From Syntrophaceae bacterium UBA5744 (GTDB taxonomy: Bacteria; Desulfobacterota; Syntrophia; Syntrophales; UBA2192): a stretch of DNA of 64,000 nt. Numbering within the stretch: position 1 is the first letter of the stretch; each line of letters starts with the position of its first letter. The stretch lies in contig DIFQ01000059.1 of NCBI GenBank assembly GCA_002419215.1, positions 2,220 to 66,219 of the forward strand, given 5' to 3'. A program made the translations under genes and the position numbers. The notes below the pieces were generated by a model. The model saw only the letters and a program-made list of their open reading frames with translations. It had not been told where the DNA came from and searched no databases. Of the stretch, positions 22,365 to 44,188 are shown one piece after another.

Positions 22365-22372
22365 TTCTTTTC

Positions 22373-25436: not shown

Positions 25437-25593
25437 CATCCCGATGAATGCCTAACATTCGTCTTCAAGCATCAAGGCTGTGAAGATCGGAAGAGCAGAA
25501 GTGAGGAAGAGCGGATAAGAGAAGAAATAATACCAACCACTCCGATCTTCCGCTCTTCATAACTTCCTCACTTCGCAATCTTATCCGGGGGCC
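25437..25593 (-). repeat. 157-bp GAAGAG-hairpin element, copy A (MITE/REP-like)
   Basis: Its reverse complement is identical to 44032-44188 at 155 of 157 positions (aligned by hand). Internal inverted arms GAAGATCGGAAGAGCAGAAGTGAGGAAGAGCGG / CCGATCTTCCGCTCTTCATAACTTCCTCACTTC. Confidence 0.9.
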
Positions 25594-25683
25594 TTGCATC
25601 CGGCCGCATTTGAACAGCCTGGCATGGATAATACCGTCTGCGGCTTGCGAAGCTTCCTTGCCCGATTCCCCTCAGGAGAGCTC

Positions 25684-25727
25684 TTGACATATATGCATAA
25701 TATATGCATATATATGCATATCATAAT
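25684..25727 (+). promoter_or_regulatory. vapBC promoter/operator
   Basis: TTGACA (25684-25689), then three copies of the palindromic decamer TATATGCATA (25690, 25701, 25711) and CATAAT (25722-25727). SD GAGGGG precedes ATG 25741. Confidence 0.7.
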
Positions 25728-25740
25728 CTGAGGGGATCCA

Positions 25741-25932
25741 ATGAGGACTACACTGAATATCGAGGACAGCCTGATCGACAAGGCATCCAGGATGACCGGT
25801 ATCAAAGAGAAAACCAAATTGGTCAAACTGGGACTGGAGGCCTTGATCGCGAGAGAAAGCGGAAAGAGGCTGGCACAGCTGGGGGGGACAGAGAAACAGC
25901 TCAAGCCGATACCCAGAAGAGGCAATCCGTAA
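25741..25932 (+). CDS. vapB: type II antitoxin, VapB family (DUF2191-like)
   Basis: MRTTLNIEDSLIDKA N terminus. 63 aa. Its stop lies 1 nt before the PIN toxin start. Palindromic operator repeats lie upstream. Confidence 0.8.
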   Translation: MRTTLNIEDSLIDKASRMTGIKEKTKLVKLGLEALIARESGKRLAQLGGTEKQLKPIPRRGNP

Positions 25933-25933
25933 C

Positions 25934-26305
25934 ATGGTTCTGGTAGACACATCCGTATGGGTAGCGCATTTGCGGCAGGGGCACACCGGTCTTGCAAGTC
26001 TGCTTAATGATGGAGAAGTTGCCTGCCACCCCTTTGTTGTCGGCGAGCTTGCCTGTGGAAATCTGAAAAACAGGGCTGTCATCCTGTCACTTTTGGAAGC
26101 CCTCCCGATGGAGGCTGCAGTGGAGCACGAAGAAGTGCTCGCGTTCATTGAGAGCCACGATCTCATGGGGAAGGGGTTGGGCTACGTGGATGTTCACCTC
26201 CTTGCGTCTGCCGTGCTGTCCCGGCTTCTCCTCTGGACGCTCGACAGGAAACTCCAACAGGTTGCCGATGTGCTGCATGTTCGTTATCTGAATGATATCG
26301 TGTAA
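25934..26305 (+). CDS. vapC: type II toxin, VapC (PIN-domain ribonuclease)
   Basis: MVLVDTSVWV (first acidic residue), later E and D residues (VVGELACG, GYVDVHLL). 123 aa. Confidence 0.85.
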   Translation: MVLVDTSVWVAHLRQGHTGLASLLNDGEVACHPFVVGELACGNLKNRAVILSLLEALPMEAAVEHEEVLAFIESHDLMGKGLGYVDVHLLASAVLSRLLLWTLDRKLQQVADVLHVRYLNDIV

Positions 26306-26359
26306 GCATTCCGGACACCACAACCCCGCACATTGCACGTTGCCCGCCATGCCGGGAGC

Positions 26360-27097
26360 TTACTTCCGAAAGAAAAAGTACTCGTGGCAGTCCTTCGGGC
26401 CGTCGAGGTCCCTCACCGAGCCCAGGAGCGTGAAGCCCGTCCCGGCAAGGAGAGCCGAGAACTCTTCGGTGGTGAAGGATGTCATGTAGATGACATTTTT
26501 CGCGTAGTCTCCATCCTTCTGCCTGAGCTTCTCGGACCCGTCGAAGTAGCGCACCTGCACAAGTCCATGACCCCCTTTGCGCAGGAGGCCCGCCGCGGTC
26601 TCCAGGATTTCTTTCGTGTAGGCCTTAGAGGGGAAGTGCTGAAACACGGCGACGGAGAAGAAGAAATCTACGGCTTCCCGCCCAACGCGATCCAGCAACT
26701 GCCTCGGGCGGGCCGCGTCAGCCAGAACCGCCTCGAAATTGGAAAGGCCGCCCCGGTTCAGCTGACGCGCACACTCGTCGAGAGTGGGCTGCGAAATGTC
26801 GACACCGACGACACGGTTAAAATAGCGGCACAGGGCGCTCATGTTTGCCCCGCCGCCGCATCCCCAGTCCAGGGCCGCCTTCGAAGCAAAGCCCACGGCC
26901 GCCTCCGAAGGGGCAAACTGCCGGAAGAAGGTTTCTACCAGGCCGAAGTTGAACTCCCCGTACTCGAGCCATCTCTGCCTCGGCCACCGTGCCGAACCGG
27001 CCCAGTGTGACTGGTCCTGCACCCGCTCGTCATGCCGGCTCAGGCTCCAGTACAGACCCGCGTCTTTCTCAAGGTTTCTCTTCATGTATTTTCTCAA
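26360..27097 (-). CDS. class I SAM-dependent methyltransferase
   Basis: Motif I ALDWGCGGGANM; post-I VVGVDIS. Confidence 0.85.
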   Translation of the reverse strand: MRKYMKRNLEKDAGLYWSLSRHDERVQDQSHWAGSARWPRQRWLEYGEFNFGLVETFFRQFAPSEAAVGFASKAALDWGCGGGANMSALCRYFNRVVGVDISQPTLDECARQLNRGGLSNFEAVLADAARPRQLLDRVGREAVDFFFSVAVFQHFPSKAYTKEILETAAGLLRKGGHGLVQVRYFDGSEKLRQKDGDYAKNVIYMTSFTTEEFSALLAGTGFTLLGSVRDLDGPKDCHEYFFFRK

Positions 27098-27108
27098 CCG
27101 AAATCCGT

Positions 27109-27189
27109 GGGGTCAGGCCTGATTATTGACATTTCGAAAAGAATCGTGTTGCTGAGCGATTTAAAATGTCAATAATCAGGCCTGACCCC
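27109..27189. repeat. perfect 26-bp inverted repeat with 29-nt loop
   Basis: GGGGTCAGGCCTGATTATTGACATTT (27109-27134) and its exact reverse complement AAATGTCAATAATCAGGCCTGACCCC (27164-27189). Confidence 0.95.
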
Positions 27190-27192
27190 GGG

Positions 27193-27236
27193 CCCTACTG
27201 TCTGCTGTCTGCTTTCACCCTATACCCGATAACCTA
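27193..27236. repeat. heptamer arrays (CTGTCTG then CCCTATA type)
   Basis: CCCTACTGTCTGCTGTCTGCTTTCACCCTATACCCGATAACCTA, overlapping the ChaN stop codon. Confidence 0.8.
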
Positions 27237-28082
27237 TTGAAGCACCAGGTAATCGGCATCCTCCGCAGTGACCTTCTCCCGATCCCCCTTCCCCCCCTGC
27301 GCAGGCAGGATGACCGAGACCGTCACATCGGGCCTCATCGTTGCGATCTGGCGGGGGATGGCACGCTTCCAGGCATGCACAGAACCCGCCAGGATGACGA
27401 TCCGGCTACCGGGGTTTTTGTCGAGGTATTCGAGGGCATAGATCGCCATGGCCGTGTCCCAGACCATCTGCGCTTCGCAGAAATGCTCGAAGGAACGCCC
27501 CGATGCGTGGGCGTGCTCCGTGAACGTGCTGCGGATGAACGACCGGTAGGCTTCGTCCAGGGTGCAGGTAAGTCCAGGCGGAAGTTTCTTTCTTTCGGCC
27601 TCCGTCAGCGCGGCAAAGCCTTCAAGCGCCACTTTCGCGATGACTTCCCGCGGCACGTTGAGGCCCAACAGGGGGATCCTCTTCTGCCGGGCATAGAGGA
27701 AGATGTCCCGGTAGAGAACCCAGGGCATCCCCCAGTTTTCCCGGTAGAGCGCCTCGAACTGCTCCGTCGGCATCCCCCAGCGCCACCACTTGTCCAGCAA
27801 CTCCTGGCTCTCGGCCCTGAACATCTCGAGACCGACCGCCAGCGGAGCACCGCCCTCGTAGAGCGTCCGGATGATCTTGAGCTGCAGGTCGTGGTGGGCC
27901 TGGTTGTCATGGGTTTCTCCGATGACGATGACCCGGCTCTTCGAGACCTCCCCGACCATCCGGTCGAAGGGAATCGTAGCCCGGTCCTTCAGCCGTACGA
28001 CGCCACCGTCCTGGCAGCCTGCCAAAAGAGGCGTCGCTGCGGCCATGATCCAGAGCAGGACGATTCGAAAAATGAAATTCAT
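27234..28082 (-). CDS. ChaN-family (haem-binding/Tiki-like) lipoprotein
   Basis: Lipobox PLLAGC. VIVIGETHDNQAHH and GLEMF motifs as in ChaN/DUF399 proteins. Confidence 0.8.
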   Translation of the reverse strand: MNFIFRIVLLWIMAAATPLLAGCQDGGVVRLKDRATIPFDRMVGEVSKSRVIVIGETHDNQAHHDLQLKIIRTLYEGGAPLAVGLEMFRAESQELLDKWWRWGMPTEQFEALYRENWGMPWVLYRDIFLYARQKRIPLLGLNVPREVIAKVALEGFAALTEAERKKLPPGLTCTLDEAYRSFIRSTFTEHAHASGRSFEHFCEAQMVWDTAMAIYALEYLDKNPGSRIVILAGSVHAWKRAIPRQIATMRPDVTVSVILPAQGGKGDREKVTAEDADYLVLQ

Positions 28083-28339
28083 AGGGATTCCCTGCTTTCC
28101 TGTCGTCCATATGAATCGGTACGTGACAAATTGTCAAGAAGATGTATAACGCATCGACATGTAAAGACTTCCGACACTCGGGGGAAATGACCGGCGGTCA
28201 TGTTCTGAATTATTACGATATTTTAGCTTGACAAAAATCATCAACATCATTACTGAAAGAACGTTGCTCTGGTAATATCTGATGATTGCATTGCACTTGA
28301 TGCAATCGAAATATAGATACGATAGAGTAGAAACGCAGG

Positions 28340-29398
28340 ATGATTACCGGATCAGCGCCTTCACTTCGTCCCGATTCAGCACGGGACATGAAGGGCCGAC
28401 AAGGGGAGGTGGTTTCCATCTACACGAGAAGATTGTCCAGGCAGATCCTCGGTTTAATCATGATCCTTCTTCGCGGGCCCTTGCTGGTCGCGCTGTCCGC
28501 GTGCCGACTTTTCAAGTTCAACTGTATCTTCACCGTCTACCCCGGCTCCCAGAAGGACATCGATGGATACCTGCCGCCCGGCTTCAAATGGGCGAAGCAC
28601 CTCGCTTCGGGCAAACCGTTTGTCGCCGGGGTCATCACGACCGGCAACGGACTGGGGCGCGGCCTCGTCCTGGCCGTTCCAAACACCGTGGAACAGTTCA
28701 AAACCGACCGAAAACTCGTCGGGAACATCATGAAACGCCTCAAGCTCACCAAGACCGTGACGGGCGCAAAAACGATCGCCGTCGCAGGACAGGGCCCGCG
28801 CTTCTTCAAGTCCCATTTCCCTTACGAGCAGCCCTTTGTCTACGGCCTGAGGGGCAGGGTTTTCTCCGTCGTGGAGACGGTGGAGAGAGTGGCGGAAAGG
28901 CACAACCTTCCCAAGGCCGGGTCCACGGTCGCCATCCTGGGTGTGGGGGAGATCGGCGAAGCGATCATCCGGAATCTCGAGGAAAAAGGTTACCGGGCCG
29001 TCGGGATCGATATCCAGATAAAAGACGGACGGGTGCAGTTGTGCAGTGAGGGGTTGAAAAGGCTGAAAGAGGCCGATCTGGTCGTTGTCCAGACGCCCCG
29101 CGGCGACGATGTCGTGCCGTACTATGCGGACCTGAAGAAAACGGCGATCCTGGTGGATGATGCTCATCCCCGGATCACCGTCAAGCCGGACGAAGTCAGA
29201 TTCTACAAGGTCGCCATCGGCCGCGCCGGCGTCGAGTTCAAGCCTCCGCTTCCCGGGTACGAGAAGTACTGGATCCCCGGATGCGTCCACGAGTCGCTGG
29301 TCGTTGCAGAATCCGGGAAGGCCGACATGTCGCAGGAGGAATTCAACCGGAGATCGAGAGAGCTTGGCTTCTTCGCCCACCTGGTCGACGACCGCTAG
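28340..29398 (+). CDS. NAD(P)-binding Rossmann-fold protein of uncertain function
   Basis: Dinucleotide fold VAILGVGEIGEAI..GYRAVGID. Overall layout vaguely recalls shikimate-dehydrogenase-like or acyl-ACP-reductase-like enzymes. Start uncertain (28340/28388). Confidence 0.65.
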   Translation: MITGSAPSLRPDSARDMKGRQGEVVSIYTRRLSRQILGLIMILLRGPLLVALSACRLFKFNCIFTVYPGSQKDIDGYLPPGFKWAKHLASGKPFVAGVITTGNGLGRGLVLAVPNTVEQFKTDRKLVGNIMKRLKLTKTVTGAKTIAVAGQGPRFFKSHFPYEQPFVYGLRGRVFSVVETVERVAERHNLPKAGSTVAILGVGEIGEAIIRNLEEKGYRAVGIDIQIKDGRVQLCSEGLKRLKEADLVVVQTPRGDDVVPYYADLKKTAILVDDAHPRITVKPDEVRFYKVAIGRAGVEFKPPLPGYEKYWIPGCVHESLVVAESGKADMSQEEFNRRSRELGFFAHLVDDR

Positions 29399-29527
29399 GG
29401 ACAGGCTAAAGGCGACAGGCCACAGGCTACAGTAGTAAAAAAGGCGAAGAAACAAGTTCCTCGCCTTTATTCATTTTCTTTTCTTACACCCGATACCCTA
29501 TACCCGATACCCAATACCCAATACCCA
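29398..29527. repeat. composite: (GCNACAG)n array - terminator hairpin - (CCCRATA)n array
   Basis: GGGACAGGCTAAAGGCGACAGGCCACAGGCTACAG (29398-29432) and CACCCGATACCCTATACCCGATACCCAATACCCAATACCCA (29487-29527). Each array abuts a stop codon of one of the convergent genes. Confidence 0.9.
29435..29480. terminator. bidirectional terminator-like hairpin between convergent genes
   Basis: AAAAAAGGCGA-13 nt loop-TCGCCTTTATTCATTTTC, embedded between two heptamer arrays. Confidence 0.5.
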
Positions 29528-29530
29528 TTT

Positions 29531-29989
29531 TCATTGGCCGTTGCCGTTCGCAGCCCCGATGCGGTCGATGGTCGTCAGCACCTTGAGCCCGTCGAAGTCC
29601 ACGTAAAAGCCGCCCTCCCTGACGGGGATGCCCATCGCCTTCTCATCGCCCGCCTCGGCAGCCGCCGAGTTGCAGATCCCGACGCTTGCGAAATAACACA
29701 GGGCATCGTTTCGCTCGGCGTGCTCCAGGTTATAGAAGACTTCCCTGTCGTCGGAGAGCCTCCCCTTGTTCGGGTAGACATCGGTCCGGACGACGACGAA
29801 GCACAGCCGGCCGTTCTTTCTTGCGACGATCTGCGGCGTCATGGCAAGCGACGGGTTCGCGCCGAGAATCTCATAGCCGTCCCTGACCATCTCCTCGTAG
29901 ACAATCTGGACCCCGAAGTCCTGGATCTCTTCCCGTGTCAGCCATTCATTTCTTTCCACGAATCGATCTCCCGCAGTGTCATCGGACAC
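29531..29989 (-). CDS. hypothetical protein (152 aa)
   Basis: Host-like codon usage. Ends 7 nt upstream of the hybrid kinase ORF end. No family recognised. Confidence 0.6.
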   Translation of the reverse strand: MSDDTAGDRFVERNEWLTREEIQDFGVQIVYEEMVRDGYEILGANPSLAMTPQIVARKNGRLCFVVVRTDVYPNKGRLSDDREVFYNLEHAERNDALCYFASVGICNSAAAEAGDEKAMGIPVREGGFYVDFDGLKVLTTIDRIGAANGNGQ

Positions 29990-29996
29990 GCAATGC

Positions 29997-32702
29997 CTAA
30001 GCCGCCTTGTCGAGTTCCACCCGGACAGCGACGGCGATCTTTTCCAGCGTGTAAGGCTTTTTCAAGTACTGTCCGGCACCCAGTTTCTGGGCTTCCTTGA
30101 CGCGGTCCGTCTCGGCAAAGCCGCTCACGATGATGGCCTTCTGCCCCGGACGATGCCGCGTGATCTTCCGGTAGGTTTCGAGGCCGTCGATCCCCGGGTC
30201 CATGATCATGTCCAGGATGACGAGGCTCGCCGGCTTGTTCTTCAGGTACTCGACGGCCTCTTCCCCGCTGGCGAGGGTCTCGGTTCTGTAGCCCAGCTTC
30301 CGCAGCATGGCCGAGGCCAGTTCCCTCTGCTCCGCCACGTCATCGACAACCAGGATGGTCTCCCCCTTCGACAGGAATTGCTCGATGGGAATCTTCCGGT
30401 CCTCCGGTTTCACGGCGGAGCGATTCACGGGGAAGTAGAGGCTGAACGTCGACCCCTTCCCTTCGACGCTCTCGATGTCGATGTATCCCTTGTGGTCCTT
30501 CACGGTACCCCAGACAACGGCCATGCCCAGGCCCGTGCCGCTTCGCCCCATGATCTTCTTCGTGTAAAAGGGCTCGAAGATCTTCTTGATGTCCTTCTGC
30601 GCGATCCCGATGCCCGTATCGGAGACCCTCATGACGATGTACTCGCCCTCGGCGACCTGGTCGTAGCCGCGGATCGTTGTGTCCACGTACTGGTTCGTGG
30701 TTTCGATGCGGATGGTGCCGCCGCAGGGCATGGCCTCGGCTGCATTGGAAACAAGATTCATCACAACCTTGGAGAGGTGCACCGAGGAGCCCTGGATGGG
30801 GAGAAGATCCTCGGCGAGATCGTTCTCGATCGTGATTGCGGGATGGAACGAACGGAGCTTTTGGAATTCGGGGCTGCGAAGGTAATCCGTGACGATGCGG
30901 TTCAGTCCCACGGGCTCCATGACAGGCACGCCGCGCCGCGCGAGGGTCAGCAGGTCCTGGACAATGGCGGCGGCCTTCTCGCCCGAGTTCTTGATCGTGA
31001 TGATGCCCCTGCGCAGGGGGCTTTCCTCGGGCAGCTCCATCAGGAGCAGGTCGGGGTAGCCGACGATCCCGCCGAGGATGTTGTTGAGGTCATGGGCCAC
31101 ACCGCCCGCGAGGGTGCCGATGGCCTCCATCTTTTCCGAACGGGCCAGCCTCTCCTCAAGGGCTTTCTTTTCCCGCTCGCTGCGCTTCTTTTCCGTGATG
31201 TCGCGAATGGTTGTGAGAATGGCCTCCTGCCCGGTCAGGGCGATCCTGCTGGCGCAGATCTCGATGTCGACGATGTCCCCGTCTCTCCGGATGTCCCGGA
31301 TCTGGTAGGAACGGAGGTCGTGGTTCGGCCATGTCTGCCTGCGCTCCACGAGAATGTGGCGGTCATCGGGGTGGATGAATTCCATGACATCCCTGCCCAG
31401 GATCTCGCCCTTGTCCTTGTACCCGTGCAGGGAAAGCCAGGCCGGGTTGACGTCGATCATCCTGCCGGCGCGGGAGACGCTCATCGCCTCCACGGAGTCC
31501 TCGAAAAGGGTCCGGTACTTTCTCTCCGAATCCATAAGCGCATTCTCGGCCGCCTTGCGGTCGGTGATGTCCCTCAGGATGGTCAACACCGCCGTCGGGT
31601 TGCCGTTTTCATCCCGCAGGGCCACGTTGGCGGCACAGTGGAAGAAGCCCTCCTGCCCCTGCCGCGTCGTGAGTGTCGTGTCGCTGCTGTGGATCTCCCC
31701 GTCCCGGAATGTCCGGAGCGCGTAGCAGGGATAGGGCTCGCAGGGCCACTGCCGCCTGCAGAGCATCTCGTGGCATTTCACGCCTTCACGGCCCAGAGCG
31801 AAAGATTCTTTTGCCTTTTCGTTAAACCAGACGACGTTCAGGTCCCGGTCGATCATGATCATGGCGTCACCGACGGACCGGAGCATGGCGTTGAGCTTGC
31901 CCTCGCTCGCCCGGAGCGCTTCCTCGGAGCGCTTGCGCTCTTCCATCTCGCCCGCCAACTGGAGGTTCGCCCGATAGAGTTGCGCGGTGCGCTCCTCCAC
32001 CCGCTGCTCGAGCTGTTCGCCCGCCTTGCGCAGTTTCTCCTCGGTATCCTGCAGGGCGGACACGGCGCTCTTGAGCTCCGCGTTGACGCCTTCGAGCTTC
32101 ATCGTGGCCTTCTCGCGGGTCCTTTCGAAAAAGTAGGCAAACGCAGTGATGACCAGGAATGAGGGGATGAAGCGCAGCTTGAAATCCCGCGAGTAGATCG
32201 TGAAGGGGCTCGGCGGGTTCTCCCACATGAAGAAAACAACAGCCGGGACGAGCATCAGCAGCGTTGCGGCAAGCCCCGGCCGGGAGCCGAGGATGAACGA
32301 CGCGATCAGGGGAAAGGTGAAGTACCAGACGTGGGCCGTGTTGTTCACCCCGCCTGTGAAGAGCAGGTAATAATAGAGCACCCCCACGACACCGACCCCG
32401 CAATGGAAGGCCGTTTTGTAGTCCTTCGTCCTGCGGAGGTAGACGATCAGACAGGCGAGCACAAAGGCGGCACAGTAATCCAGCGCGGCGAGCCAGGGGT
32501 TTCTCTGGAAATAGGCAAGCGTTCCCAGCAGGACGAGGTTGAGGATGCCGATCAGGGAGAAGGCGTTGAAGACGATGATCTTGCGTGACATATCACGCCC
32601 CCGATCGTCGCTTATCCCGCCGCTGATCAGGTCGAAGGAGATCCTCTTCAGTTCCTGCACGTTCACGGTCATGGTCTCGTCCCGGCCCCCCCGGACTGGC
32701 AT
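29997..32702 (-). CDS. hybrid sensor histidine kinase / response regulator with membrane sensor and PAS domains
   Basis: About six N-terminal TM helices, coiled coil, PAS repeats, H-box (GGVAHDLNNIL), HATPase_c (GTGLGMAVV), C-terminal receiver (ILVVDDV..LVILDMIMP). Confidence 0.9.
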   Translation of the reverse strand: MPVRGGRDETMTVNVQELKRISFDLISGGISDDRGRDMSRKIIVFNAFSLIGILNLVLLGTLAYFQRNPWLAALDYCAAFVLACLIVYLRRTKDYKTAFHCGVGVVGVLYYYLLFTGGVNNTAHVWYFTFPLIASFILGSRPGLAATLLMLVPAVVFFMWENPPSPFTIYSRDFKLRFIPSFLVITAFAYFFERTREKATMKLEGVNAELKSAVSALQDTEEKLRKAGEQLEQRVEERTAQLYRANLQLAGEMEERKRSEEALRASEGKLNAMLRSVGDAMIMIDRDLNVVWFNEKAKESFALGREGVKCHEMLCRRQWPCEPYPCYALRTFRDGEIHSSDTTLTTRQGQEGFFHCAANVALRDENGNPTAVLTILRDITDRKAAENALMDSERKYRTLFEDSVEAMSVSRAGRMIDVNPAWLSLHGYKDKGEILGRDVMEFIHPDDRHILVERRQTWPNHDLRSYQIRDIRRDGDIVDIEICASRIALTGQEAILTTIRDITEKKRSEREKKALEERLARSEKMEAIGTLAGGVAHDLNNILGGIVGYPDLLLMELPEESPLRRGIITIKNSGEKAAAIVQDLLTLARRGVPVMEPVGLNRIVTDYLRSPEFQKLRSFHPAITIENDLAEDLLPIQGSSVHLSKVVMNLVSNAAEAMPCGGTIRIETTNQYVDTTIRGYDQVAEGEYIVMRVSDTGIGIAQKDIKKIFEPFYTKKIMGRSGTGLGMAVVWGTVKDHKGYIDIESVEGKGSTFSLYFPVNRSAVKPEDRKIPIEQFLSKGETILVVDDVAEQRELASAMLRKLGYRTETLASGEEAVEYLKNKPASLVILDMIMDPGIDGLETYRKITRHRPGQKAIIVSGFAETDRVKEAQKLGAGQYLKKPYTLEKIAVAVRVELDKAA

Positions 32703-32893
32703 CGCTTGGGCGATGTCCTAAAAATACCTTTTAACTAGCAGGGACCATGCCACTTCGCCTCACCTTCAGAAAAAAGGGGTCCTTACAAAAGCATGTAATT
32801 TCAGTTAGTTAGCGAAGCATTCGGGGTGCATGGCGGTCGGCTTTCAGGGATGGCACTCCGGCACCTCGCCATGTTCTTGACACACGGGAGAAA

Positions 32894-32961
32894 GTGACTG
32901 AGTGTCTGAGTGCTTGAGTGCCTGAGTGAAGAAAGAAGGGGGTCGGGAGTCAGGATGCAGG
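32894..32961. repeat. paired arrays (TGAGTGYN then GGRNKCR units)
   Basis: GTGACTGAGTGTCTGAGTGCTTGAGTGCCTGAGTG - AAGAAAGAA - GGGGGTCGGGAGTCAGGATGCAGG. Confidence 0.8.
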
Positions 32962-32995
32962 ATTTTCCAATTAATGCGTGCGGTCGCGGGTAGGG

Positions 32996-33946: not shown

Positions 33947-34650
33947 CAGGTGCCCTCCTTCACGCGGATGCGATCGTATTCCCCGCCCGTGACAGGCACA
34001 AAACGGATACGGTCCCCTGCCTCGTAGAGGAAGGGGGTTTCCCGCTCGGGCGCGAAAAGTCGAAGCGGCGTGCGGCCGATGATCTGCCAGCCGCCGGGGC
34101 TGTCTACGGGGTACATGCCCGTCTGGGACTCGGCGATCCCGACGGAGCCGCCGGGCAGCAGCGTCCGCGGTGTCTTTCGCCTCGGCGTGTGGATCCGCCT
34201 GTCGAGCCCGCCCAGGTAGCAGAAGCCGGGGGTGAAACCGATCATGTAGATGGGGTAGTCCGTCCCCGCGTGGATGGCAATGACCTGCTCAGCGGTCAGT
34301 CCGTTGTGCTGCGCCACGATCGCGAGGTCGGGGCCGAACTCGCCGCCATACAGGACGGGGATCTCGACGATCCGGGGAGGCGGGATCTCGATCTCGTGAA
34401 TCCGTGCTTCCAATCCCTGAACGAGTGAGAGGAGTTTCGCCGGCGATGTGAGCAGGGGATCGTAGAGGAGCGACAGGTTGCGGTAGGCGGGGATGACGGC
34501 CTCGACGCCTTCGGGAAGCCCCGTCTTCAGGAGTGCCGCCATGGCACGGACCTTTTCGTTGACGGCCGGGTCGATTGCGTCGCCGTACTCCACGAGCACG
34601 GCCCGGTCGCCGCTGATGCGAATGCGGGGCTTTTCGAATAGGTGAGACAT
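33946..34650 (-). CDS. pxpB: 5-oxoprolinase subunit B (KipI/AHS1)
   Basis: AHS1-type sequence (AVLVEYGD.., IPVLYGGEFGPDL, GFTPGFCYLGGLD). Confidence 0.88.
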   Translation of the reverse strand: MSHLFEKPRIRISGDRAVLVEYGDAIDPAVNEKVRAMAALLKTGLPEGVEAVIPAYRNLSLLYDPLLTSPAKLLSLVQGLEARIHEIEIPPPRIVEIPVLYGGEFGPDLAIVAQHNGLTAEQVIAIHAGTDYPIYMIGFTPGFCYLGGLDRRIHTPRRKTPRTLLPGGSVGIAESQTGMYPVDSPGGWQIIGRTPLRLFAPERETPFLYEAGDRIRFVPVTGGEYDRIRVKEGT

Positions 34651-34717
34651 GCAGTCTACCTGGCCCGATCGGTGTTCCTGCGATACCCTCACAGGCAACG
34701 GCTTCGCGGCCGGATTC

Positions 34718-34831: not shown

Positions 34832-34832
34832 T

Positions 34833-35612: not shown

Positions 35613-35629
35613 ATCCGATTCCCTTTTCG

Positions 35630-36934: not shown

Positions 36935-37010
36935 GATTATACGATCTCCATGATCTGCAGGAACCGAGCATGCTTCGGTGGCCTGAAAACGTCTCGCGAA
37001 TTCCTGTTCT

Positions 37011-37046
37011 TTCCGCGCTTCCGGTCTTCCGCGCTTCCGGTCTTCC
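37011..37046. repeat. 16-bp tandem duplication in the dctQ-dctM spacer
   Basis: TTCCGCGCTTCCGGTC x2, then TTCC. Confidence 0.85.
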
Positions 37047-37056
37047 TGTCGTCACA

Positions 37057-37593
37057 TCACCGCCCCAGGTCATCCGCTTCCTCGAGAATCCGAAGCCCTT
37101 CCGCGTCCTGGCGCAGCAGGGCAAAACCCTTCAGGAACTCGGCCGCAAACTGGAGCGTCAGGAGGAACGAACCGATCGGCAAAAAAGCCTGCGGGATCGC
37201 GAGATAGGTCTCCGAGACCTGCATCGACTGGGACTCGCTGACGACGGAGTCCCAGAAGAACTCCCAGGTGAACCAGGTCAACCCCGCACAAAACAAAAAA
37301 CCCACCGTAAAACAGACCATGTTGTAGATGACGTGGGCCCTGCCCTTGAGGATGTGGGGCAGGAACATCATCCGGATGTGGCCGCGCTCGCGAAGCGTGT
37401 AGGCAAGCCCCATGAAGGTGAGCATCGCCATGAGGTAGCCCGTGAACTCGTCGGCAACGTACAGGGTACTGTTCAGAAAGCTCCGGAAGACGATCTCGCC
37501 GACGGACAGCATGAGTCCGATGGCCATGAGGATTCCCGCCACCCAGCCCCCGATGCCGGACAGAGTGTCGATCAGGATGATCAGCTTTTTCAT
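37057..37593 (-). CDS. dctQ: TRAP transporter small permease (DctQ family)
   Basis: 178-aa 4-TM protein between DctP and DctM genes. Confidence 0.85.
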   Translation of the reverse strand: MKKLIILIDTLSGIGGWVAGILMAIGLMLSVGEIVFRSFLNSTLYVADEFTGYLMAMLTFMGLAYTLRERGHIRMMFLPHILKGRAHVIYNMVCFTVGFLFCAGLTWFTWEFFWDSVVSESQSMQVSETYLAIPQAFLPIGSFLLTLQFAAEFLKGFALLRQDAEGLRILEEADDLGR

Positions 37594-37702
37594 ATCTCTC
37601 TCAGTGCCTGTCAACGCTGATGAATGCCCCAATGAAACAGGGACCACGGATCTCGTCACGAGCCGTGGTCCCCGCTATCGCCTTATGTCGAACTTCGAAC
37701 CC

Positions 37703-38698
37703 CTAGCGGCCGACCTTCTTCAGGAAGTCCGCATAAATCTTCTTGCCCTCGGGCGGCGCATCCTTGACCCAGTCGGCGCGAATTTTCTGCGTAATCTTCT
37801 CGAGATCCGCGATCATCTGCTTGGAGGGTTTCACCGTCTCGATGCCATTCTTGTTCGAGATGGCCTCCATGTCTTTGTCCCACTTGGGGCCGCGCTCCCA
37901 CATGACCGTCTCCATTTCCTTGCCGGCCTTCACCAGGGCATCCTGCTGGGCCTTGGGGAGCTTCCGGAAGGCGGCCAGGTTGACGGTCACCATGTTCGTG
38001 GCGATCGTGATGTTCAGGGGCTCGAAGTACTTGAGCACTTCCCAGAACTTGGCATCCACGGCGGTGGGTGTCGAGGTCATGACGGAGTCGATGACACCGG
38101 TCTGCAGCGACGTGTAGACCTCGCTGAAGGGAAGCGCCAGCGGGGTTGCCCCGACGGCTTCCATCACGAGGGCGCCGTTCTTGTCGTAGGTGCGGGTCTT
38201 GAGGCCCTTCAGGTCGGCAACGGAGGTGATCTTCTTTTTCGTCCACAGACCGGCTCCCGGCCAGGGCGCGATGTAGAGGATCTTCTGCTTCCACTTGCCC
38301 TCGGCCGCCTTGTCGAAGGCGGGCCGGGAGATGTCGATGAGCGTCTTCAGTTCCTTGAAGTCCCGGACGAGGAAGGGGAGCGTCACGATCTGGAAGACCT
38401 TCTCGTCGCCGGCCACGCCGCTGATGAGCATGTCGGAGACGGGCACCAGGCCGTCCCGGACGACCTTCAGCAGTTCGGGCCCCTTGTAGCCCAGGGCGCC
38501 GCCGCTGCTCACCACCAGTTCGAGCTCGCCGTTGGTTGCCTTCTTCACCTTCTCGGCAAATTCCGTCAGCCCGACGCTGTGGTTGTTCTTCGGGGGCCAT
38601 ACCGAGTTTGCGTTCCACGTGGTCTTCGCGAGGCAGGGCGTAGCCAGAAACGCCGCTGCGACGACCGTGACGATCATGAGCGTCCAGGTCTTCTTCAT
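37703..38698 (-). CDS. dctP: TRAP transporter substrate-binding protein (DctP family)
   Basis: Signal peptide, periplasmic binding-protein sequence. First gene of the TRAP-pxp operon. Confidence 0.88.
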   Translation of the reverse strand: MKKTWTLMIVTVVAAAFLATPCLAKTTWNANSVWPPKNNHSVGLTEFAEKVKKATNGELELVVSSGGALGYKGPELLKVVRDGLVPVSDMLISGVAGDEKVFQIVTLPFLVRDFKELKTLIDISRPAFDKAAEGKWKQKILYIAPWPGAGLWTKKKITSVADLKGLKTRTYDKNGALVMEAVGATPLALPFSEVYTSLQTGVIDSVMTSTPTAVDAKFWEVLKYFEPLNITIATNMVTVNLAAFRKLPKAQQDALVKAGKEMETVMWERGPKWDKDMEAISNKNGIETVKPSKQMIADLEKITQKIRADWVKDAPPEGKKIYADFLKKVGR

Positions 38699-39015
38699 AG
38701 GTCGCCTCTCCTTTTTTGAATGAGATTTCGATGGGTGCCCGAACAGGGGCGGTATCCTGTCAAAAACGGCGCTGATTATAGAAGGTTGCCCCTTTCAAAG
38801 CAAGCCCAAACTGAAAAGAAATAGCCTTGTCTATTCAAGAAGTTGAGTCAATCACGGGCCGGTGGAAGCCGAAGCGCCCGTTTCAATTTTGTCACGGTTT
38901 GTGGCTCGCCCCGGATCGAACGGGATCCTTTATGGACAGCAGCGTTGATCCGATATAGGAAGAGAAGGGCGCCGATCGCGAAGAAGATGAACTCGGCGCT
39001 ACAGCAGGGATAAGA

Positions 39016-39753
39016 ATGAAGAAAGGACTCATCGCCGCCGGTGTCCTGCTGGCGCTTGTCATTATCGCCTCCGTCGCTCTCGTCGTGAGGCTCGACGGAC
39101 TGATCACGAAGGCCGTCAACACCTACGGCCCGGAGATCACGGGGACGGAGATCCTTGTCGACGACGTGCGCGTGTCCTTCCTTTCCGGCGAGGCAACGAT
39201 CAGGAATTTCATCATGACCAACCCGAGGGGTTTTCGTTCGCCCCGGGCCATGAAGGTGGCCTCCGTCTCCGTGAGCCTGGAGCTGACCTCCCTGCTGTCC
39301 GACACGGTCGTCATCCGGCGTCTCGAGATCGTGGAGCCGGATATCACCTACGAGAAGCGCGGCGGCACGGACAACTTCAAGACCATCGCGAAACACGCCG
39401 AGCAGAAGGCGAAAGAGGCGGGGATTGTCTCCGGGGAAACCGTTGAAGGAATACCGGGGAAGAAACTTCGGATCCGGGAGTTCATCATGCGGGGAGGACG
39501 GGTGACCCTGCACACGCCGGACCTGCCGTCGGGCACGGCCGGCGCGGCGCTGCCCGACATCCGGATGCGGGATGTCGGCAAGGACGGTGCGCCCCCCTCG
39601 GAGGTCTTCAGCCGGATCCTGGCCGTGCTGGTTGACCGCCTGACGATGCCCATCGTCGCGGACACGCTCAACCGCAGTCTTCTCGAAGCCCGCAAGTCGG
39701 CCGAAAAAGGCACCCGCACCCTCACGGACAAAATCAAGGACTTCTTCAAATAA
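39016..39753 (+). CDS. hypothetical N-terminally anchored protein (AsmA/DUF748-like?)
   Basis: N-terminal TM (LIAAGVLLALVIIASVALVV) followed by a beta-rich segment. Family assignment is tentative. Confidence 0.65.
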   Translation: MKKGLIAAGVLLALVIIASVALVVRLDGLITKAVNTYGPEITGTEILVDDVRVSFLSGEATIRNFIMTNPRGFRSPRAMKVASVSVSLELTSLLSDTVVIRRLEIVEPDITYEKRGGTDNFKTIAKHAEQKAKEAGIVSGETVEGIPGKKLRIREFIMRGGRVTLHTPDLPSGTAGAALPDIRMRDVGKDGAPPSEVFSRILAVLVDRLTMPIVADTLNRSLLEARKSAEKGTRTLTDKIKDFFK

Positions 39754-40165
39754 AAAATCCCCCTTCTTTACATCGCCTCTGCCTTTCGTGCATCCCCACA
39801 CGCTGCGGCGGTTTCCTTGCGGCTGACCCTTTCACCTGCGAGTTCTTGACCGGGGGCGCCTGTGAAAGACCCTATTCCTTAATCTTCCTCTCCCTTGAGC
39901 GGAGAGCCCTTCGATAAACTCAGGGCCGTGAGCTTGTCGAACGGGACAGAGGTGAGGGTGAATCGCGCCCTTCCTCAGGTATCCGGGAGCGCAACCATGA
40001 ACGGTTCTTTTCTTGCCGGGAAGCCCCGCCCTGCGGGCGGGGGGCTTCACATTGCAGGGTGAGTCACATTGAGGAAACCCTGTTGGAAACAGTCGCGCCT
40101 GCAGCAGCCAGTCAGGAGATGTCCCACGTTTGATTTTCCTGCTGATCGGAAGAGACGGGTAAGCG

Positions 40166-40205
40166 GGTTGCCAGACAATTGGCTGGTTGCAACCTGGGTT
40201 TTTTT
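40166..40205 (+). terminator. terminator/attenuator-like hairpin upstream of the second TRAP operon
   Basis: GGTTGC..(17 nt, itself a small hairpin)..GCAACC, then TGGG and seven T residues, 65 nt before dctP ATG 40270. Confidence 0.45.
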
Positions 40206-40269
40206 CGGGTAGTGTAACGCAGAAAAAGATGAATAGAAGCGCCAGGAAAATGAGAAAGGAGGAATCGCT

Positions 40270-41274
40270 ATGAGTACGACAATACACGGAAAGGTTGCAA
40301 AATGCGCGGTCCTGTTGTTCGCGGCCGTGATCCTGATCGGTTTTTCGAGCAACGCGTTTGCCGTCACGCTGACGCTCGGCCACGGGGCCTCGCCCGGGAA
40401 TCCACGCACCATCGCCGCAGAGGCATTCGCGAAGATGGTTTCGGAGCGCACGAAAGGCAGTGTCACCATCAAGATTGCCGGCGCCGAACAGCTCGGAAAC
40501 GACGTCGCCATGCTGACATCCCTGCGAATCGGCGCGCTCGACTTGACGGCGAACAGCCAGGGCCCGGCCGCCGGCCTGGTTCCGGAAGTTGCCGCCCTGG
40601 GCCTGCCCTTTCTGTTTTCCGATGCCGACGCCGCCCACAAGGTGCTCAGCGGGCCCGTCGGTGAGCGTTTGAACAAGAGGTTCGCCGAAGTGGGAATCGT
40701 GGTCCTGGACTGGTGGGACAACGGGATCCGACACATCACGAATTCCAAGCGGCCCATCAACATGCCGGCCGACCTCAAGGGGCTCAAGATCCGCACCCCG
40801 GCCGATCCGATGACCGTGGATATTTTCCAGGCGCTCGGCGCGGCAACCCAGCAGATCGCCTTCGGCGAGCTGTACGTCGCCCTCCAGCAGGGCGTCGTCG
40901 ACGGCCAGGAGAACCCGCTTGCGAACATCGCCAGCAACAAGCTCTACGAAGTGAACAAGTACATCTCCCTTTCCGGCCACAAGTGGGAGTCCACCCCGTT
41001 CCTGATGTCGCAGATGGCGGTCAAGAAGGTCAAACCGGCCGAGCTCGAAGTCATCAAAAAGGCCGCGAAAGAGGCGGGGGCCCTCCAGCGCCGGCTGATG
41101 GCCGAGACGGACAAGAAACTGCTCGCGGAGTTCAAGGCGAACCCCAACGTTGCCGTCAACCAGGCAAACCGGGCGGCGTTCCAGGCGGCGACTGCGAGTG
41201 TCGTCGAAAAGTGGCAGGCGAAACCCTTCGGCTCCTTCGTCACGGAGCTCGTGGCCGCGGCGAAGAAGAAGTGA
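40270..41274 (+). CDS. dctP: TRAP transporter substrate-binding protein (DctP family)
   Basis: AAAGGAGG SD. Signal peptide. DctP motifs (LGHGASPGNP.., DGQENPL). Confidence 0.9.
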   Translation: MSTTIHGKVAKCAVLLFAAVILIGFSSNAFAVTLTLGHGASPGNPRTIAAEAFAKMVSERTKGSVTIKIAGAEQLGNDVAMLTSLRIGALDLTANSQGPAAGLVPEVAALGLPFLFSDADAAHKVLSGPVGERLNKRFAEVGIVVLDWWDNGIRHITNSKRPINMPADLKGLKIRTPADPMTVDIFQALGAATQQIAFGELYVALQQGVVDGQENPLANIASNKLYEVNKYISLSGHKWESTPFLMSQMAVKKVKPAELEVIKKAAKEAGALQRRLMAETDKKLLAEFKANPNVAVNQANRAAFQAATASVVEKWQAKPFGSFVTELVAAAKKK

Positions 41275-41281
41275 TCGCCGC

Positions 41282-41854
41282 ATGACGGGTGTTCATGGCG
41301 GGGACCCGCCCGTCAAAGGGTCTGCCGGCCGGCGCATCGCTTTTGCCGCGGCGAGCGGCATCGATCGTCTCATCACGCGTCTGTGCCGTTTCATCGTTCT
41401 GGTGACGGGGATCGCGCTGACGGTGATTCTGACGGGCAACGTTGTCGCGCGCTACGTGTTGGCAAGCGGCGGCATCGATGCCGCGCAGGAGCTCCCGGAG
41501 CTCCTGTTTCCATGGTTCATCGTCGCGGGGATCGCACTGGCCGCGCAGGCAGGCGGGCATCTGGGTGTTGACTGGCTCTACGACCGGCTCGGGCCGCGCG
41601 GTCGTGTCTGGTTCCTGCATCTCGTGAACGCGATCGTGATCGCGTCCTACCTGATCCTCTGCGGGCAGTCGCTGCTCCTGGCGGAGAGCACGTGGGTGCA
41701 AGTCAGTCCCGTACTCAAAATTCCGACCAGCCAGGGGTACATGGCTGTGGCGCTGGGCTGTCTGCTCCTGGCTCTTGCAGCGGCATGTTCCTCCGTGCGC
41801 ATTGCGTCGACCGGGCCCGAAACGCGTTTCACGCTCACCTATAAAGAGACCTGA
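41282..41854 (+). CDS. dctQ: TRAP transporter small permease (DctQ family)
   Basis: 4-TM protein between DctP and DctM genes. Start taken at ATG 41282. Confidence 0.8.
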   Translation: MTGVHGGDPPVKGSAGRRIAFAAASGIDRLITRLCRFIVLVTGIALTVILTGNVVARYVLASGGIDAAQELPELLFPWFIVAGIALAAQAGGHLGVDWLYDRLGPRGRVWFLHLVNAIVIASYLILCGQSLLLAESTWVQVSPVLKIPTSQGYMAVALGCLLLALAAACSSVRIASTGPETRFTLTYKET

Positions 41855-41856
41855 CC

Positions 41857-43116
41857 ATGAGTTTTGTCCTCACCCTTGCGTTTATCGCGCTCATGCTGCT
41901 CGCCGTTCCGGTGGGGCACGGGATGGTCATCGCGGCAGCCGTGGCGGTCCTGTGGGACGGGACCCTGCCGCTCATGATTGTGGCCCAGCAGCTGTTTCAG
42001 CAGACCCAGTCGTTTCCGATGCTGGCCCTGCCTTTCTTCATGCTGGCGGGAAGCCTGATGATGGGCGGCCGGCTTGGAAAGGAACTCCTGATGTTCGCGT
42101 CCGAGTTCATGAAGCGCTTCACGGGGGGCGAGCTCTCCACCACCGTGGTGGCCTCTGCCGTCTTCGGCGGCGTTTCCGGAAGCGCCGTCGCCAACTCCTC
42201 GGCTCTCGGTCCGGTCCTCATCCCGTGGCAGAAAAAGTGCGGTTACCCCGCCGGCCTGTGCGCGGCCAATATGGCGACGTCGTCCGTCCTTGATATCCTG
42301 ATCCCGCCGTCGATCCCCATGATTCTCTACTCCCTGATCAGCGGCGTGAGCGTGGCCGACCTCTTCATCGCCGGCGTCCTTCCGGGCCTGCTCATGGCGG
42401 GAAGCTTCATCTTCCTGTGCTGGTGGATCTCCAGGCGCCGGGGTTACAAGAACACCGGTTCGGCGATCGGGAAACGGGAATTGCTTCGACTCGCCCTCAG
42501 ATCGCTCCCCGCGCTCGCCATGCCGGTCTGGATCCTCGTCTTCCTGCGTTTCGGGGTTGCGACGCCGACCGAGGTGGCCGTGCTTGCCGTCGTCTACTCC
42601 ATCCTGCTGAGCGTCATCCTGTACAGGGACCTCAACTGGGCCCGCTTCAAGGAGGCGATGGTCGAGGCCGGGATTGCCACCGGCATCGTGATGCTGGTGA
42701 TCATGGGCAGCGCGGCCTGCGGCTGGCTTTTGACGTTCGACGAGGTGCCGGCGCGATTTGTCGCCTGGGTGTCCGCGACGATCCAGAGTCCCTGGCTTAT
42801 TTTGATGGCGATGAACGTGGTGCTGCTCGTTGTCGGCATGCCCCTCGATCTGCCGCCGGCCCTGCTTCTTTTCGGGCCCATCTTCGTGCCGTTGGGATTG
42901 TCTCTCGGTCTGGATCCCGTCCAGCTCGGGCTGATCATGGTCATCAACCTGGGAATCGGCGTCTACACGCCGCCTGTGGGAACCACGCTGTTCATCTCCA
43001 CGAGCATCGCCAAGTGTTCGCTGGACGAGACGACCCGGGAGCTCTGGCCGTTTTTCTTCGCCGCTTGTCTTCTGTTGCTTGCGGTGACGTACATCCCTGC
43101 GCTGACGCTTTACTGA
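41857..43116 (+). CDS. dctM: TRAP transporter large permease (DctM family)
   Basis: 419-aa polytopic DctM-type sequence. Confidence 0.9.
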   Translation: MSFVLTLAFIALMLLAVPVGHGMVIAAAVAVLWDGTLPLMIVAQQLFQQTQSFPMLALPFFMLAGSLMMGGRLGKELLMFASEFMKRFTGGELSTTVVASAVFGGVSGSAVANSSALGPVLIPWQKKCGYPAGLCAANMATSSVLDILIPPSIPMILYSLISGVSVADLFIAGVLPGLLMAGSFIFLCWWISRRRGYKNTGSAIGKRELLRLALRSLPALAMPVWILVFLRFGVATPTEVAVLAVVYSILLSVILYRDLNWARFKEAMVEAGIATGIVMLVIMGSAACGWLLTFDEVPARFVAWVSATIQSPWLILMAMNVVLLVVGMPLDLPPALLLFGPIFVPLGLSLGLDPVQLGLIMVINLGIGVYTPPVGTTLFISTSIAKCSLDETTRELWPFFFAACLLLLAVTYIPALTLY

Positions 43117-43195
43117 GACGTGCCGGGGCGCGGAAACCCGATCCTGCAGCGTGTCGGGCAGAAACGATTACGAAACAAAAGGAGACGATAAAGAG

Positions 43196-43954
43196 ATGTC
43201 GTTTGAAAAGAGAGTTGCGATCGTCACGGGTGCAGGCTCACCGAGAGGGATCGGACGCGCGATTGCCCTGACCCTGGCGAAAAGAGGTGCCGATGTGGTT
43301 GTCGGCGATATGGATCTGGCAGGCGCGGAAAGAGTGGCCGAGGAAATCAGAGCCATGAAGCGCAGCGCCATTGCCGTCAAAGTCGATGTAACCAGGCAAA
43401 CGGACGTAGCCGAACTCGTTCGCACGGCGCTCGACCGCTTCGGCAGGATCGACATCCTGGTGAACAACGCGGGGATCACCCAGCCGATCAAGGTGGTGGA
43501 CATGACGGAGAAAGACTGGGACCGCATCCTGGCGGTCAACCTGAAAGGAACGTTTCTTTGCTCCCAGGCTGTTCTCGCCACGATGATCAAGCAAGGGTAC
43601 GGCCGCATCGTCAACATGAGCTCTGTCTCGGCAAAGAGGGGCGGGGGCGTGTTCGGCGGGGCGCACTACAGCGCGGCGAAGGCAGGCATCCTCGGATTTG
43701 CCAAGGCCCTGGCGCGGGAGGTTGCCGCCCACGGGATCACCGTCAACTCCGTTGCCCCCGGGCTGATTGCCACGGACATCCGCGGAGGCCTCGAATCGCC
43801 CGAGCGGCAGAAGGAGATGTCCAGGGACATCCCATGCCAGAGAATCGGAACGCCCGAAGAGGTGGCTGCAACGGTCGCTTTTCTGGCGTCGGAGGAAGCC
43901 GCTTACATTACCGGCGAGGATATCGATATCAACGGCGGTTCGCACATGGATTAG
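43196..43954 (+). CDS. short-chain dehydrogenase/reductase (FabG-like)
   Basis: TGAGSPRGIGRA cofactor motif, NNAG, catalytic YSAAK. Confidence 0.9.
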   Translation: MSFEKRVAIVTGAGSPRGIGRAIALTLAKRGADVVVGDMDLAGAERVAEEIRAMKRSAIAVKVDVTRQTDVAELVRTALDRFGRIDILVNNAGITQPIKVVDMTEKDWDRILAVNLKGTFLCSQAVLATMIKQGYGRIVNMSSVSAKRGGGVFGGAHYSAAKAGILGFAKALAREVAAHGITVNSVAPGLIATDIRGGLESPERQKEMSRDIPCQRIGTPEEVAATVAFLASEEAAYITGEDIDINGGSHMD

Positions 43955-44031
43955 CTTCACGGCCCTTGATGCGCCCCCGGTCACCAGCCTTGCTTACGTC
44001 TCCCGGGCTGGTCAAAAAGGTGCAAACGCCA

Positions 44032-44188
44032 GGCCCCCGGATAAGATCGCGAAGTGAGGAAGTTATGAAGAGCGGAAGATCGGAGTGGATGGTATTATTT
44101 CTTCTCTTATCCGCTCTTCCTCACTTCTGCTCTTCCGATCTTCACAGCCTTGATGCTTGAAGACGAATGTTAGGCATTCATCGGGATG
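44032..44188 (+). repeat. 157-bp GAAGAG-hairpin element, copy B
   Basis: 155/157 identical to the reverse complement of 25437-25593. Flanked by direct repeats of GGCTGGTCAAAA(A)GG..TGCAA at 44007-44025 and 44219-44246. Confidence 0.9.

Follow-up and report, generated by a model that had tools for sequence, protein, structure and literature searches.

Two near-identical 157-bp sequences lie in opposite orientation on either side of an 18.4-kb block of genes in the window, the 64,000-nucleotide stretch of the Syntrophaceae bacterium UBA5744 genome analysed here. This arrangement raises three questions: whether the repeats delimit a mobile island, how two members of a repeat family came to be so alike, and whether recombination between them inverts the enclosed block.

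The inverted pair and the enclosed block

Copy A (25437–25593, plus strand) matches the reverse complement of copy B (44032–44188, minus strand) at 155 of 157 positions, as established by direct reading, repeat search and alignment. The mismatches, 25536(A)/44089(T) and 25577(A)/44048(G), leave exact stretches of 99, 40 and 16 nt, and the match extends one base further, to 25594. The pair is thus as first described, both differences included. Assembly artefact was considered and rejected, since contigs from other samples and other assemblers carry both copies and their 60-nt flanks at 100% identity, both mismatches included. The two junctions are exactly reproduced, in the parental orientation, in independent assemblies from at least six samples.

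Both copies belong to a hairpin-repeat family that occupies 95 loci in the 3.47-Mb metagenome-assembled genome. Among the 1747 family pairs that could be scored (alignments of 100 nt or more), the median identity is 77.3% and the 95th percentile 85.3%; A and B, at 98.7%, rank first, and the runner-up reaches 95.6%. Their similarity is no chance match. Such an exceptional outlier calls for recent duplication or homogenisation, as the preliminary description had proposed, and equally identical copies scattered through the genome, which would have weakened that proposal, are lacking among the 95 loci. The other copies in the window are clearly less similar to the pair, at 75% (about 1975–2116), 84% (52938–53058) and 86% over 37 nt (18043–18079), a range that bears out the lower similarity first noted for them.

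The enclosed block (25594–44031, with no strand assigned as a whole) contains vapBC, a methyltransferase gene, a ChaN gene, a dehydrogenase-like gene, a hybrid histidine kinase gene, pxpC/pxpB-type genes, a first TRAP transporter, an AsmA-like fragment, and a second TRAP transporter with an SDR gene. Pfam searches recovered PIN/VapBC, methyltransferase, ChaN, hybrid kinase and pxpC/pxpB-type carboxyltransferase domains together with the two TRAP transporters and the SDR, so the genes initially listed for the block are essentially correct. On the left the block is flanked by a LexA-like S24 peptidase gene and a 78/79-aa ORF (24528–25416, plus strand), and on the right by a 145-aa gene on the minus strand and an EamA transporter gene on the plus strand (44360–45840).

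The block had been described as accessory-looking, a view that the comparison with related genomes does not sustain. The order and orientation S24-hyp79-...-MTase-ChaN-DH-HK-pxpCB-TRAP1-...-hyp145-EamA are kept between the same flanking genes in seven congeneric species (G005, G012, G008, G016, G009, G014 and G017), and the GC content of the block, 57–64%, is like that of its flanks. The orientation seen here is probably ancestral for the genus, as all seven sampled species agree in a comparison that includes no outgroup. The sole part of the block that varies in presence or orientation is the TRAP 2–SDR operon (40270–43954, plus strand), which has the same orientation in G005 and G012, is inverted in G008, G015 and G004, and is absent from G016, G009, G014 and G017.

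That the copies might bound a composite transposon or a genomic island was suggested by their inverted geometry around a set of genes and by the vapBC cassette lying immediately inward of copy A. Against this, the 157-nt units hold no ORF, and Pfam scans found no transposase, integrase or invertase/recombinase gene in the block and no recombinase domain beside it. The block has a normal GC content and keeps its synteny across the genus whether or not the repeats are present, and copy B is younger than the block. Moreover, copy A is ancestral and copy B lineage-specific (see below); the two are therefore not the ends of a segment acquired as a single unit. We therefore regard an island or composite transposon as extremely improbable. 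The block is ordinary, genus-conserved chromosome, and a false lead is thereby removed from this locus.

Origin of the two copies

In copy A a left arm is followed by a palindromic, purine-rich/pyrimidine-rich core and then by a right end, as judged from alignment and folding. The full extent of family homology around it, about 200 nt, was delimited from a conservation profile across 94 copies; element A so defined occupies 25420–25622 on the plus strand, with a left flanking module ending in TTGGCCGGCGGCA and a right module, TGCATCCGGCCGCATTTGAACAGCCTGG. It starts a few bases 3' of the stop codon of the 78/79-aa ORF, downstream of the lexA-like gene. Orthologues of copy A are present at the same site in G005 (94.9% identity) and G013 (95.5%), and half copies remain there in G010 and G012. 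Copy A is thus ancestral, common to sister species, and it is an old, slowly evolving sequence. Beside the half copy in G012 lies a 2.6-kb insert that encodes a lipoprotein and a 429-aa protein.

Copy B is found only in this species among the comparable genomes. It was not found between the SDR gene and the 145-aa gene in G005, G012 or G013, where the spacers hold flanking modules. The inner module of B (44003–44031, minus strand) is orthologous to a core-less sequence in G005 and is therefore older than the core that now adjoins it; the outer module (CCCCCGGTCAACCGCCC; 44189–44205, minus strand) is likewise orthologous to a core-less sequence in G012. The head modules duplicated around B were considered as an insertion footprint, but this was rejected, because both are present without a core in G012 and so predate B. 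Within the central unit, B carries the lineage-specific GCCTAAC and CTGTG states of A, unlike the orthologues of A, and the divergence between A and B (1.3%) is smaller than that between orthologous copies (4.5–10%). Copy B is lineage-specific and derived from A. Given its absence from the matching site in three species and its possession of A's lineage-specific bases, B most probably originated recently as a local copy of the central unit of A, although the absence in G005, G012 and G013 could also reflect a single loss if the present species is the outgroup.

We consider it probable that A and B are the most recently related pair of the family, that B was copied from A, and that the block between them is ordinary chromosome. 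In this lineage, A's central unit of about 157 nt would have been copied in inverted orientation to a site at a distance of 18.4 kb, where flanking modules already stood on either side. For the mechanism, we infer a local, transposition-like hop of one discrete unit in preference to gene conversion. As a by-product, the two copies together form a substrate for homologous recombination that could invert the block.

The alternative is that both sites held old, diverged members of the family and that a conversion tract between the inverted copies overwrote the central 157 nt of one with that of the other and left the modules diverged. The flanking modules of A and B are only 43–80% identical, as against 94–100% in three sub-regions of the central unit, and this abrupt end of near-identity inside the family homology of about 200 nt is what a conversion tract would also produce. 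A and B are in addition chromosomal neighbours within the family, as conversion favours, same-contig neighbours making up only 48 of the 4465 possible pairs, and the family gives no other sign of recent transposition. However, the B site is core-less in three syntenic species, which obliges homogenisation to assume one more gain or loss. The three family pairs that rank highest in similarity share high identity over the same 157-nt span, and it falls in the modules on either side; two of these pairs are unlinked, and shared boundaries are unlike the random end points of conversion. The modules are also too diverged to offer good homology for initiation. Taken together, homogenisation appears unlikely, while deserving serious consideration.

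Several observations weigh against transposition. None of the 1747 scored pairs other than A/B is near-identical, so the family is not visibly active, and no transposase is linked to it. The motif CCGGGGG stands on both sides of the 157-nt unit, but it is conserved family sequence, and hence no target-site duplication is demonstrable. Insertion of the core into a host repeat was also considered and was rejected as unsupported, a solo TGACCGGGGGCCTTGCAT target site being absent from the genome. Even so, copying of a discrete unit from A to B accounts best for the core-less relatives and the recurrent boundaries.

The repeat family

Each of the 17 genomes sampled from the genus contains the family. 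Its copies are intergenic (81 of 93 overlap crude gene calls by at most 30 nt) and lie mostly downstream of genes, with 20 spacers between convergent and 10 between divergent genes; some directly follow stop codons, and their orientation is biased with transcription, 44 versus 19. Copy A folds at −68.8 kcal/mol (z = −3.7), and family copies fold about 12 kcal/mol better than shuffled sequences. RNAalifold returned no consensus structure from the family alignment; when base pairs were counted on copy A's own fold, the core arms proved nearly invariant, which renders covariation uninformative. The build is mosaic, since both at C64:14276 and, in relatives, at the B site the right-hand module accompanies a different core. 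Orthologous copies change more slowly than synonymous sites, a degree of conservation that would be explained if the element served the lexA-ORF79 transcript as a 3' stabiliser or terminator.

Two further members in the window illustrate gain or loss between species. The copy at 1919–2150 (plus strand, modules included) is absent from G013, G005, G009 and G010, where about 30 nt separate the conserved flanks and the empty site lies cleanly, right after a stop codon. The copy at 52938–53059 (minus strand) is present only in G000 and G013, with about 90% identity in the latter, and the site lacks it in G005, G010 and G009. At the one clean filled/empty site, nothing beyond a 4-nt ATAG repeat was observed. 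With the 1919–2150 copy missing so cleanly from four species, the family appears to behave as an insertion element.

The family resembles REP/BIME-type repeats or MITEs, being genus-wide, intergenic, hairpin-forming and mosaic. Intergenic mosaic repeats of the REP/BIME type occur in Proteobacteria, for example the BIMEs of E. coli and the RIMEs of Rhizobium. The present family is like them in being dispersed, of high copy number, intergenic and imperfectly palindromic, in its preference for sites downstream of genes, directly after stop codons and in a transcription-biased orientation, and in combining the same flanking modules with different hairpin cores. It differs in its unit of 157 nt (about 200–230 nt with modules) as against the 20–40 nt of a REP, in its purine-rich/pyrimidine-rich core, in the lack of any match in Rfam or the literature, and in its host, an uncultured Syntrophaceae genus. 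Rfam gave no family at gathering thresholds, and relaxed E-values yielded only chance-level matches to miRNA hairpins; the literature was also searched for REP elements in Syntrophaceae, without result.

In REPIN-RAYT systems, a domesticated IS200-like transposase of the Y1 type mobilises REP doublets. The present family has a comparable hairpin doublet architecture, and seven homologues of Y1_Tnp (PF01797) are encoded in the genome. Unlike RAYT genes, however, no Y1_Tnp gene is flanked by or near a family copy; around the seven loci in this fragmented assembly, the nearest copy lies 5 kb or more from the gene, or the contig carries none. Near-identical copies are usually numerous in REPIN populations; the present family has a single such pair. 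With MITEs the family shares a size of 150–230 nt, the absence of coding capacity, an extended palindrome, presence or absence between species with a clean empty site, and one young copy. It is unlike them in its lack of a demonstrable target-site duplication and in being old overall, with a median identity of 77%.

We therefore describe an apparently uncatalogued family of intergenic hairpin repeats from an uncultured Syntrophaceae genus of methanogenic hydrocarbon-degrading consortia. Its traits of interest are orthologues that evolve more slowly than synonymous sites, gain and loss between species, and one demonstrably young local copy.

Possible inversion of the block

Chromosomal inversions by homologous recombination occur between inverted rrn operons, IS copies and REP clusters, and the 99-nt exact stretch shared by A and B exceeds the minimum that RecA recombination usually requires. 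The suggestion that the pair could serve as a recombination substrate is plausible for a 157-bp repeat with 99 nt of exact identity. The locus is like known cases in having an inverted, near-identical pair and one contig with the predicted junction, and unlike them in that the repeat is far below the usual length of IS or rrn substrates and that all but one assembly are parental.

The exceptional contig, L130, comes from JGI 3300000032, the NapDC 454+Illumina hybrid assembly (PMC5029510). It runs from the outer flank of B (reverse complement of 44332–44189) through the inverted repeat into the inner flank of A; the repeat carries A-type bases and is followed by vapBC-MTase-ChaN-HK. This is exactly the junction predicted for an inverted block, and 454 reads are long enough to cover 157 nt. 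The neighbouring TRAP 2–SDR operon has itself been inverted during the history of the genus. On the other hand, the CLC assembly of the same NAPDC culture (3300002446) has both junctions in parental form on one 61-kb contig, and all other contigs that cross either repeat are parental, from samples including ERZ27315046, ERZ27315034, ERZ922797, 3300000568, 3300002219 and ERZ27315059. The reciprocal junction, hyp79-IR-SDR, was looked for among public assemblies and was not found. A wrong path through the repeat node would yield an identical contig, and L130 has indels typical of a lower-quality assembly. Logan contigs break at the repeat, and a 41-mer specific to A and B had no hit in a metagenome-wide scan, from which near-identical records appear to have been withheld. 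L130 thus represents a true inversion variant or else a wrong path taken by the assembler, and inversion of the block is a possibility. A genuine polymorphism for the orientation of the 18.4-kb block, driven by the pair in natural or enrichment populations through RecA recombination within the 99-nt stretch, is a tentative reading that we hold to be rather doubtful. Such a polymorphism is compatible with either origin of the pair.

A bolder proposal is that the 157-nt unit is a still-active, protein-less mobile unit that copies locally into existing modules, and that its newest copy sustains a real inversion polymorphism of which L130 is the first trace; this may be so, but we think it distinctly unlikely. 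A programmed switch, in which site-specific recombination at the repeats regulates the flanking genes, has nothing beyond the inverted geometry to recommend it. The block neither contains nor adjoins a gene for an invertase or recombinase, the repeats are generic representatives of a family with 95 copies, no evident promoter would be shifted relative to a gene by inversion, and the orientation is constant across species. Such a switch would be most surprising.

If L130 is real, the locus provides a simple natural case of repeat-mediated inversion; otherwise, it represents ordinary repeat biology. The host syntroph occurs in alkane- and naphtha-degrading methanogenic cultures.

The inverted pair and its repeat family

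The segment at 25437–25593 on the forward strand (copy A) is the reverse complement of 44032–44188 (copy B) at 155 of 157 positions, both by direct reading and in a repeat search of the window. The mismatches, 25536(A)/44089(T) and 25577(A)/44048(G), are the two reported in the preliminary description, and they leave exact common runs of 99, 40, and 16 nt. The 157-nt segment forms an internal hairpin (fold −68.8 kcal/mol; z = −3.7 versus shuffles). BLAST with the 157-mer against the whole draft assembly (154 contigs, 3.47 Mb, 60% GC, the window being its contig C151) identified 95 loci that match 80 nt or more of the unit. Among the 1747 pairs of family members with alignments of 100 nt or more, A and B rank first at 98.7% identity, followed by a pair at 95.6%; the median is 77.3% and the 95th percentile 85.3%. 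The two copies are also neighbouring family members on the chromosome, a relation held by 48 of the 4465 possible pairs as same-contig neighbours. That the most similar pair is a neighbouring one implies a local process.

Alignment of 94 copies with their flanks resolved three layers: a palindromic purine-rich/pyrimidine-rich core (about 25481–25575 in copy A; 80–99% conservation per column), less conserved arms, and flanking modules, with full family homology of copy A extending over about 25420–25622. The same modules also occur with other cores, indicating a mosaic build. Most copies are intergenic, 81 of 93 overlapping crude gene calls by no more than 30 nt. Convergent spacers hold 20 copies versus 10 in divergent ones (background 354 versus 339), and in tandem contexts 44 copies are co-oriented with transcription versus 19 opposed. 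Copy A and the copy at 1919–2150 both begin no more than a few bases from a stop codon. Relatives were gathered through a LexA-like protein, all being MAGs labelled Syntrophaceae, Syntrophales or 'delta proteobacterium'. All sampled genomes of the genus contain the family; it occurs once in a sister genus, and was not found in the sampled genomes of other families of the order. Rfam gave no match for the unit, and a literature search for REP elements in Syntrophaceae found none. Being mostly intergenic, hairpin-forming, mosaic, and multi-copy, like REP, BIME, and MITE elements, the family is of this kind, and it is apparently uncatalogued for this lineage.

The 1919–2150 copy is absent in four sister species, where the empty site is clean and lies directly after the stop codon; comparison of filled and empty sites reveals a possible 4-nt ATAG duplication. 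Its best within-genome match is only 79% and no source copy is visible; either loss of the source or a gap in the 88%-complete assembly may account for this.

Age, direction, and manner of copying

Full orthologues of copy A occupy the equivalent site in the congeneric genomes G005 (94.9%) and G013 (95.5%); G010 and G012 each carry a 3′ half copy there. Nearby sequence is less conserved (lexA third codon positions, 79%; the small gene ORF79, 72–76%; the adjacent spacer, 70–80%), so the element, judged by these comparisons, is evolving under stronger constraint than its surroundings, a possible sign of a function, for example as a 3′-end RNA structure. A further orthologous pair of the family, at 52938, shows about 90% identity.

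In G005, G012, and G013 the spacer between SDR and the small gene ORF145 lacks a counterpart of copy B. The flanking modules of B do have orthologues in that spacer: the inner head module in G005, and the outer module plus the next head module in G012. The place of the core in the window's genome is taken up in G012 by only about 10 nt. Copy B carries A's states GCCTAAC and CTGTG where the A orthologues differ, and the A–B divergence (1.3%) is below every orthologue divergence (4.5–10%). Copy B therefore descends from copy A or its immediate lineage, and arose after speciation. The proposed alternative of recent duplication or homogenisation stands, with the evidence leaning towards duplication from A to B.

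A–B identity over three sub-regions of the unit is 100%, 99%, and 94%, and drops to 43–80% in the homologous modules either side. On one reading, copy B would have arisen by copying of a discrete, roughly 157-nt unit in between pre-existing modules. High identity inside the unit and a drop in the modules also fit a gene-conversion tract between two older inverted copies, which we consider unlikely. Copying of a discrete unit is supported by the next two most similar family pairs, both unlinked, whose identity tracts have the same boundaries as those of A and B, and by clean gain and loss of family copies between species; local duplicative copying is accordingly our favoured reading, held with some confidence, over conversion of an old copy. 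Ordinary transposition was considered and is counted against on four grounds. No target-site duplication is demonstrable around the unit, since the flanking CCGGGGG is conserved family sequence; the genome contains no solo target sites; no transposase is linked to the family, the seven Y1_Tnp loci of the genome lying away from its copies; and no other young copy occurs among the 1747 scored pairs.

Synteny and orientation of the enclosed block

The intervening 18.4 kb (25594–44031) had been described as accessory-looking and possibly a composite mobile or island structure, a reading contradicted by the following data and rejected. Pfam scans of all credible ORFs of the block detected no transposase, integrase or invertase, and GC is 57–64% within the block and 60–64% outside. 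In a tblastn comparison of the window's proteins with the orthologous regions of other genomes of the genus, the gene order S24(LexA-like)-ORF79-[small variable slot]-MTase-ChaN-dehydrogenase-like-ORF152-hybrid kinase-pxpC-pxpB-TRAP1-...-ORF145-EamA is conserved. Order and orientation are constant in G005, G012, G008, G016, G009, G014, and G017, with or without the repeats. The window's orientation is therefore probably ancestral, on the agreement of seven congeneric species with no outgroup used.

The exact run of 99 nt could plausibly serve as a substrate for RecA. Exact-protein look-ups in public assemblies recovered essentially clonal contigs (99.7–100% identity) from methanogenic hydrocarbon-degrading cultures and related samples, including NAPDC, SCADC, Iso3TC, ERZ27315034/046/059, and ERZ922797. 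All contigs crossing copy A or B have the window's junctions with both mismatches intact, except one of 6995 bp (Draft_c0025534, JGI 3300000032) from a 454+Illumina hybrid assembly of the NAPDC culture. It runs from the reverse complement of 44332–44189 (B's outer flank) through a repeat that is A-type at both diagnostic positions into A's inner flank and vapBC-MTase-ChaN-...-kinase, exactly the junction that inversion of the block would create. Real inversion heterogeneity is a possible source of this contig, but we regard it as rather doubtful: wrong traversal of the repeat node would yield an identical contig, this contig has indels relative to all other assemblies, and the SDR contig of 3300000032 breaks off within the repeat, at 44130, and has B-type bases. 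Moreover, in the CLC assembly of the NAPDC culture (3300002446) a single 61-kb contig carries both window-type junctions, and the reciprocal junction was not found among the contigs recovered. Block inversion is thus mechanistically plausible, with one ambiguous trace.

Variable parts and other repeats

Only two parts of the block vary. The slot just inside copy A (25594–26359) is occupied by vapBC in the window and by a 2.6-kb lipoprotein pair in G010 and G012, contains almost nothing in G009, and is empty in others; it is a small cassette hotspot. The 2.6-kb pair encodes a 216-aa lipoprotein and a 429-aa protein (locus L013, 2943–5650) and lies between two direct copies of the right-hand module of the element. 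The 3.7-kb TRAP2+SDR operon (40270–43954) is absent in G016, G009, G014, and G017, inverted with respect to the neighbouring genes in G008, G015, and G004, and in the window's orientation in three species, G005 and G012 among them. In the window it is bracketed by inverted copies, 72–87% complementary, of a different repeat, TTCACCCTCACC...GAGGGAGAGGG (39884–39975 and 44266–44319), which may have mediated the older inversion of the operon. At the G005 locus (L011+L012, about 18487–23498) the 145-aa gene is duplicated, one copy each side of TRAP2+SDR and each with 93–94% amino-acid identity to the window's protein, which suggests that the operon was inserted or rearranged there through duplication.

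The intergenic spacers also contain an abundant second repeat type that has no relation to the 157-nt family. It is built from CCCTATA/GGGTATC heptamers in tandem, which often pair as hairpins; its arrays in the window lie at 7517–7556, 10075–10142, 22325–22364, 29480–29533, 34791–34830, 52382–52449, and 53101–53140. Seven homologues of the IS200/RAYT-type transposase Y1_Tnp (PF01797) occur in the genome contigs (C5:14395, C27:5293 and 5674, C24:26616, C100:6638, C138:38246, and C41:4192), none adjoining a copy of the 157-nt family. They are open frames of 124–349 aa and might belong to another repeat family, such as the heptamer arrays.
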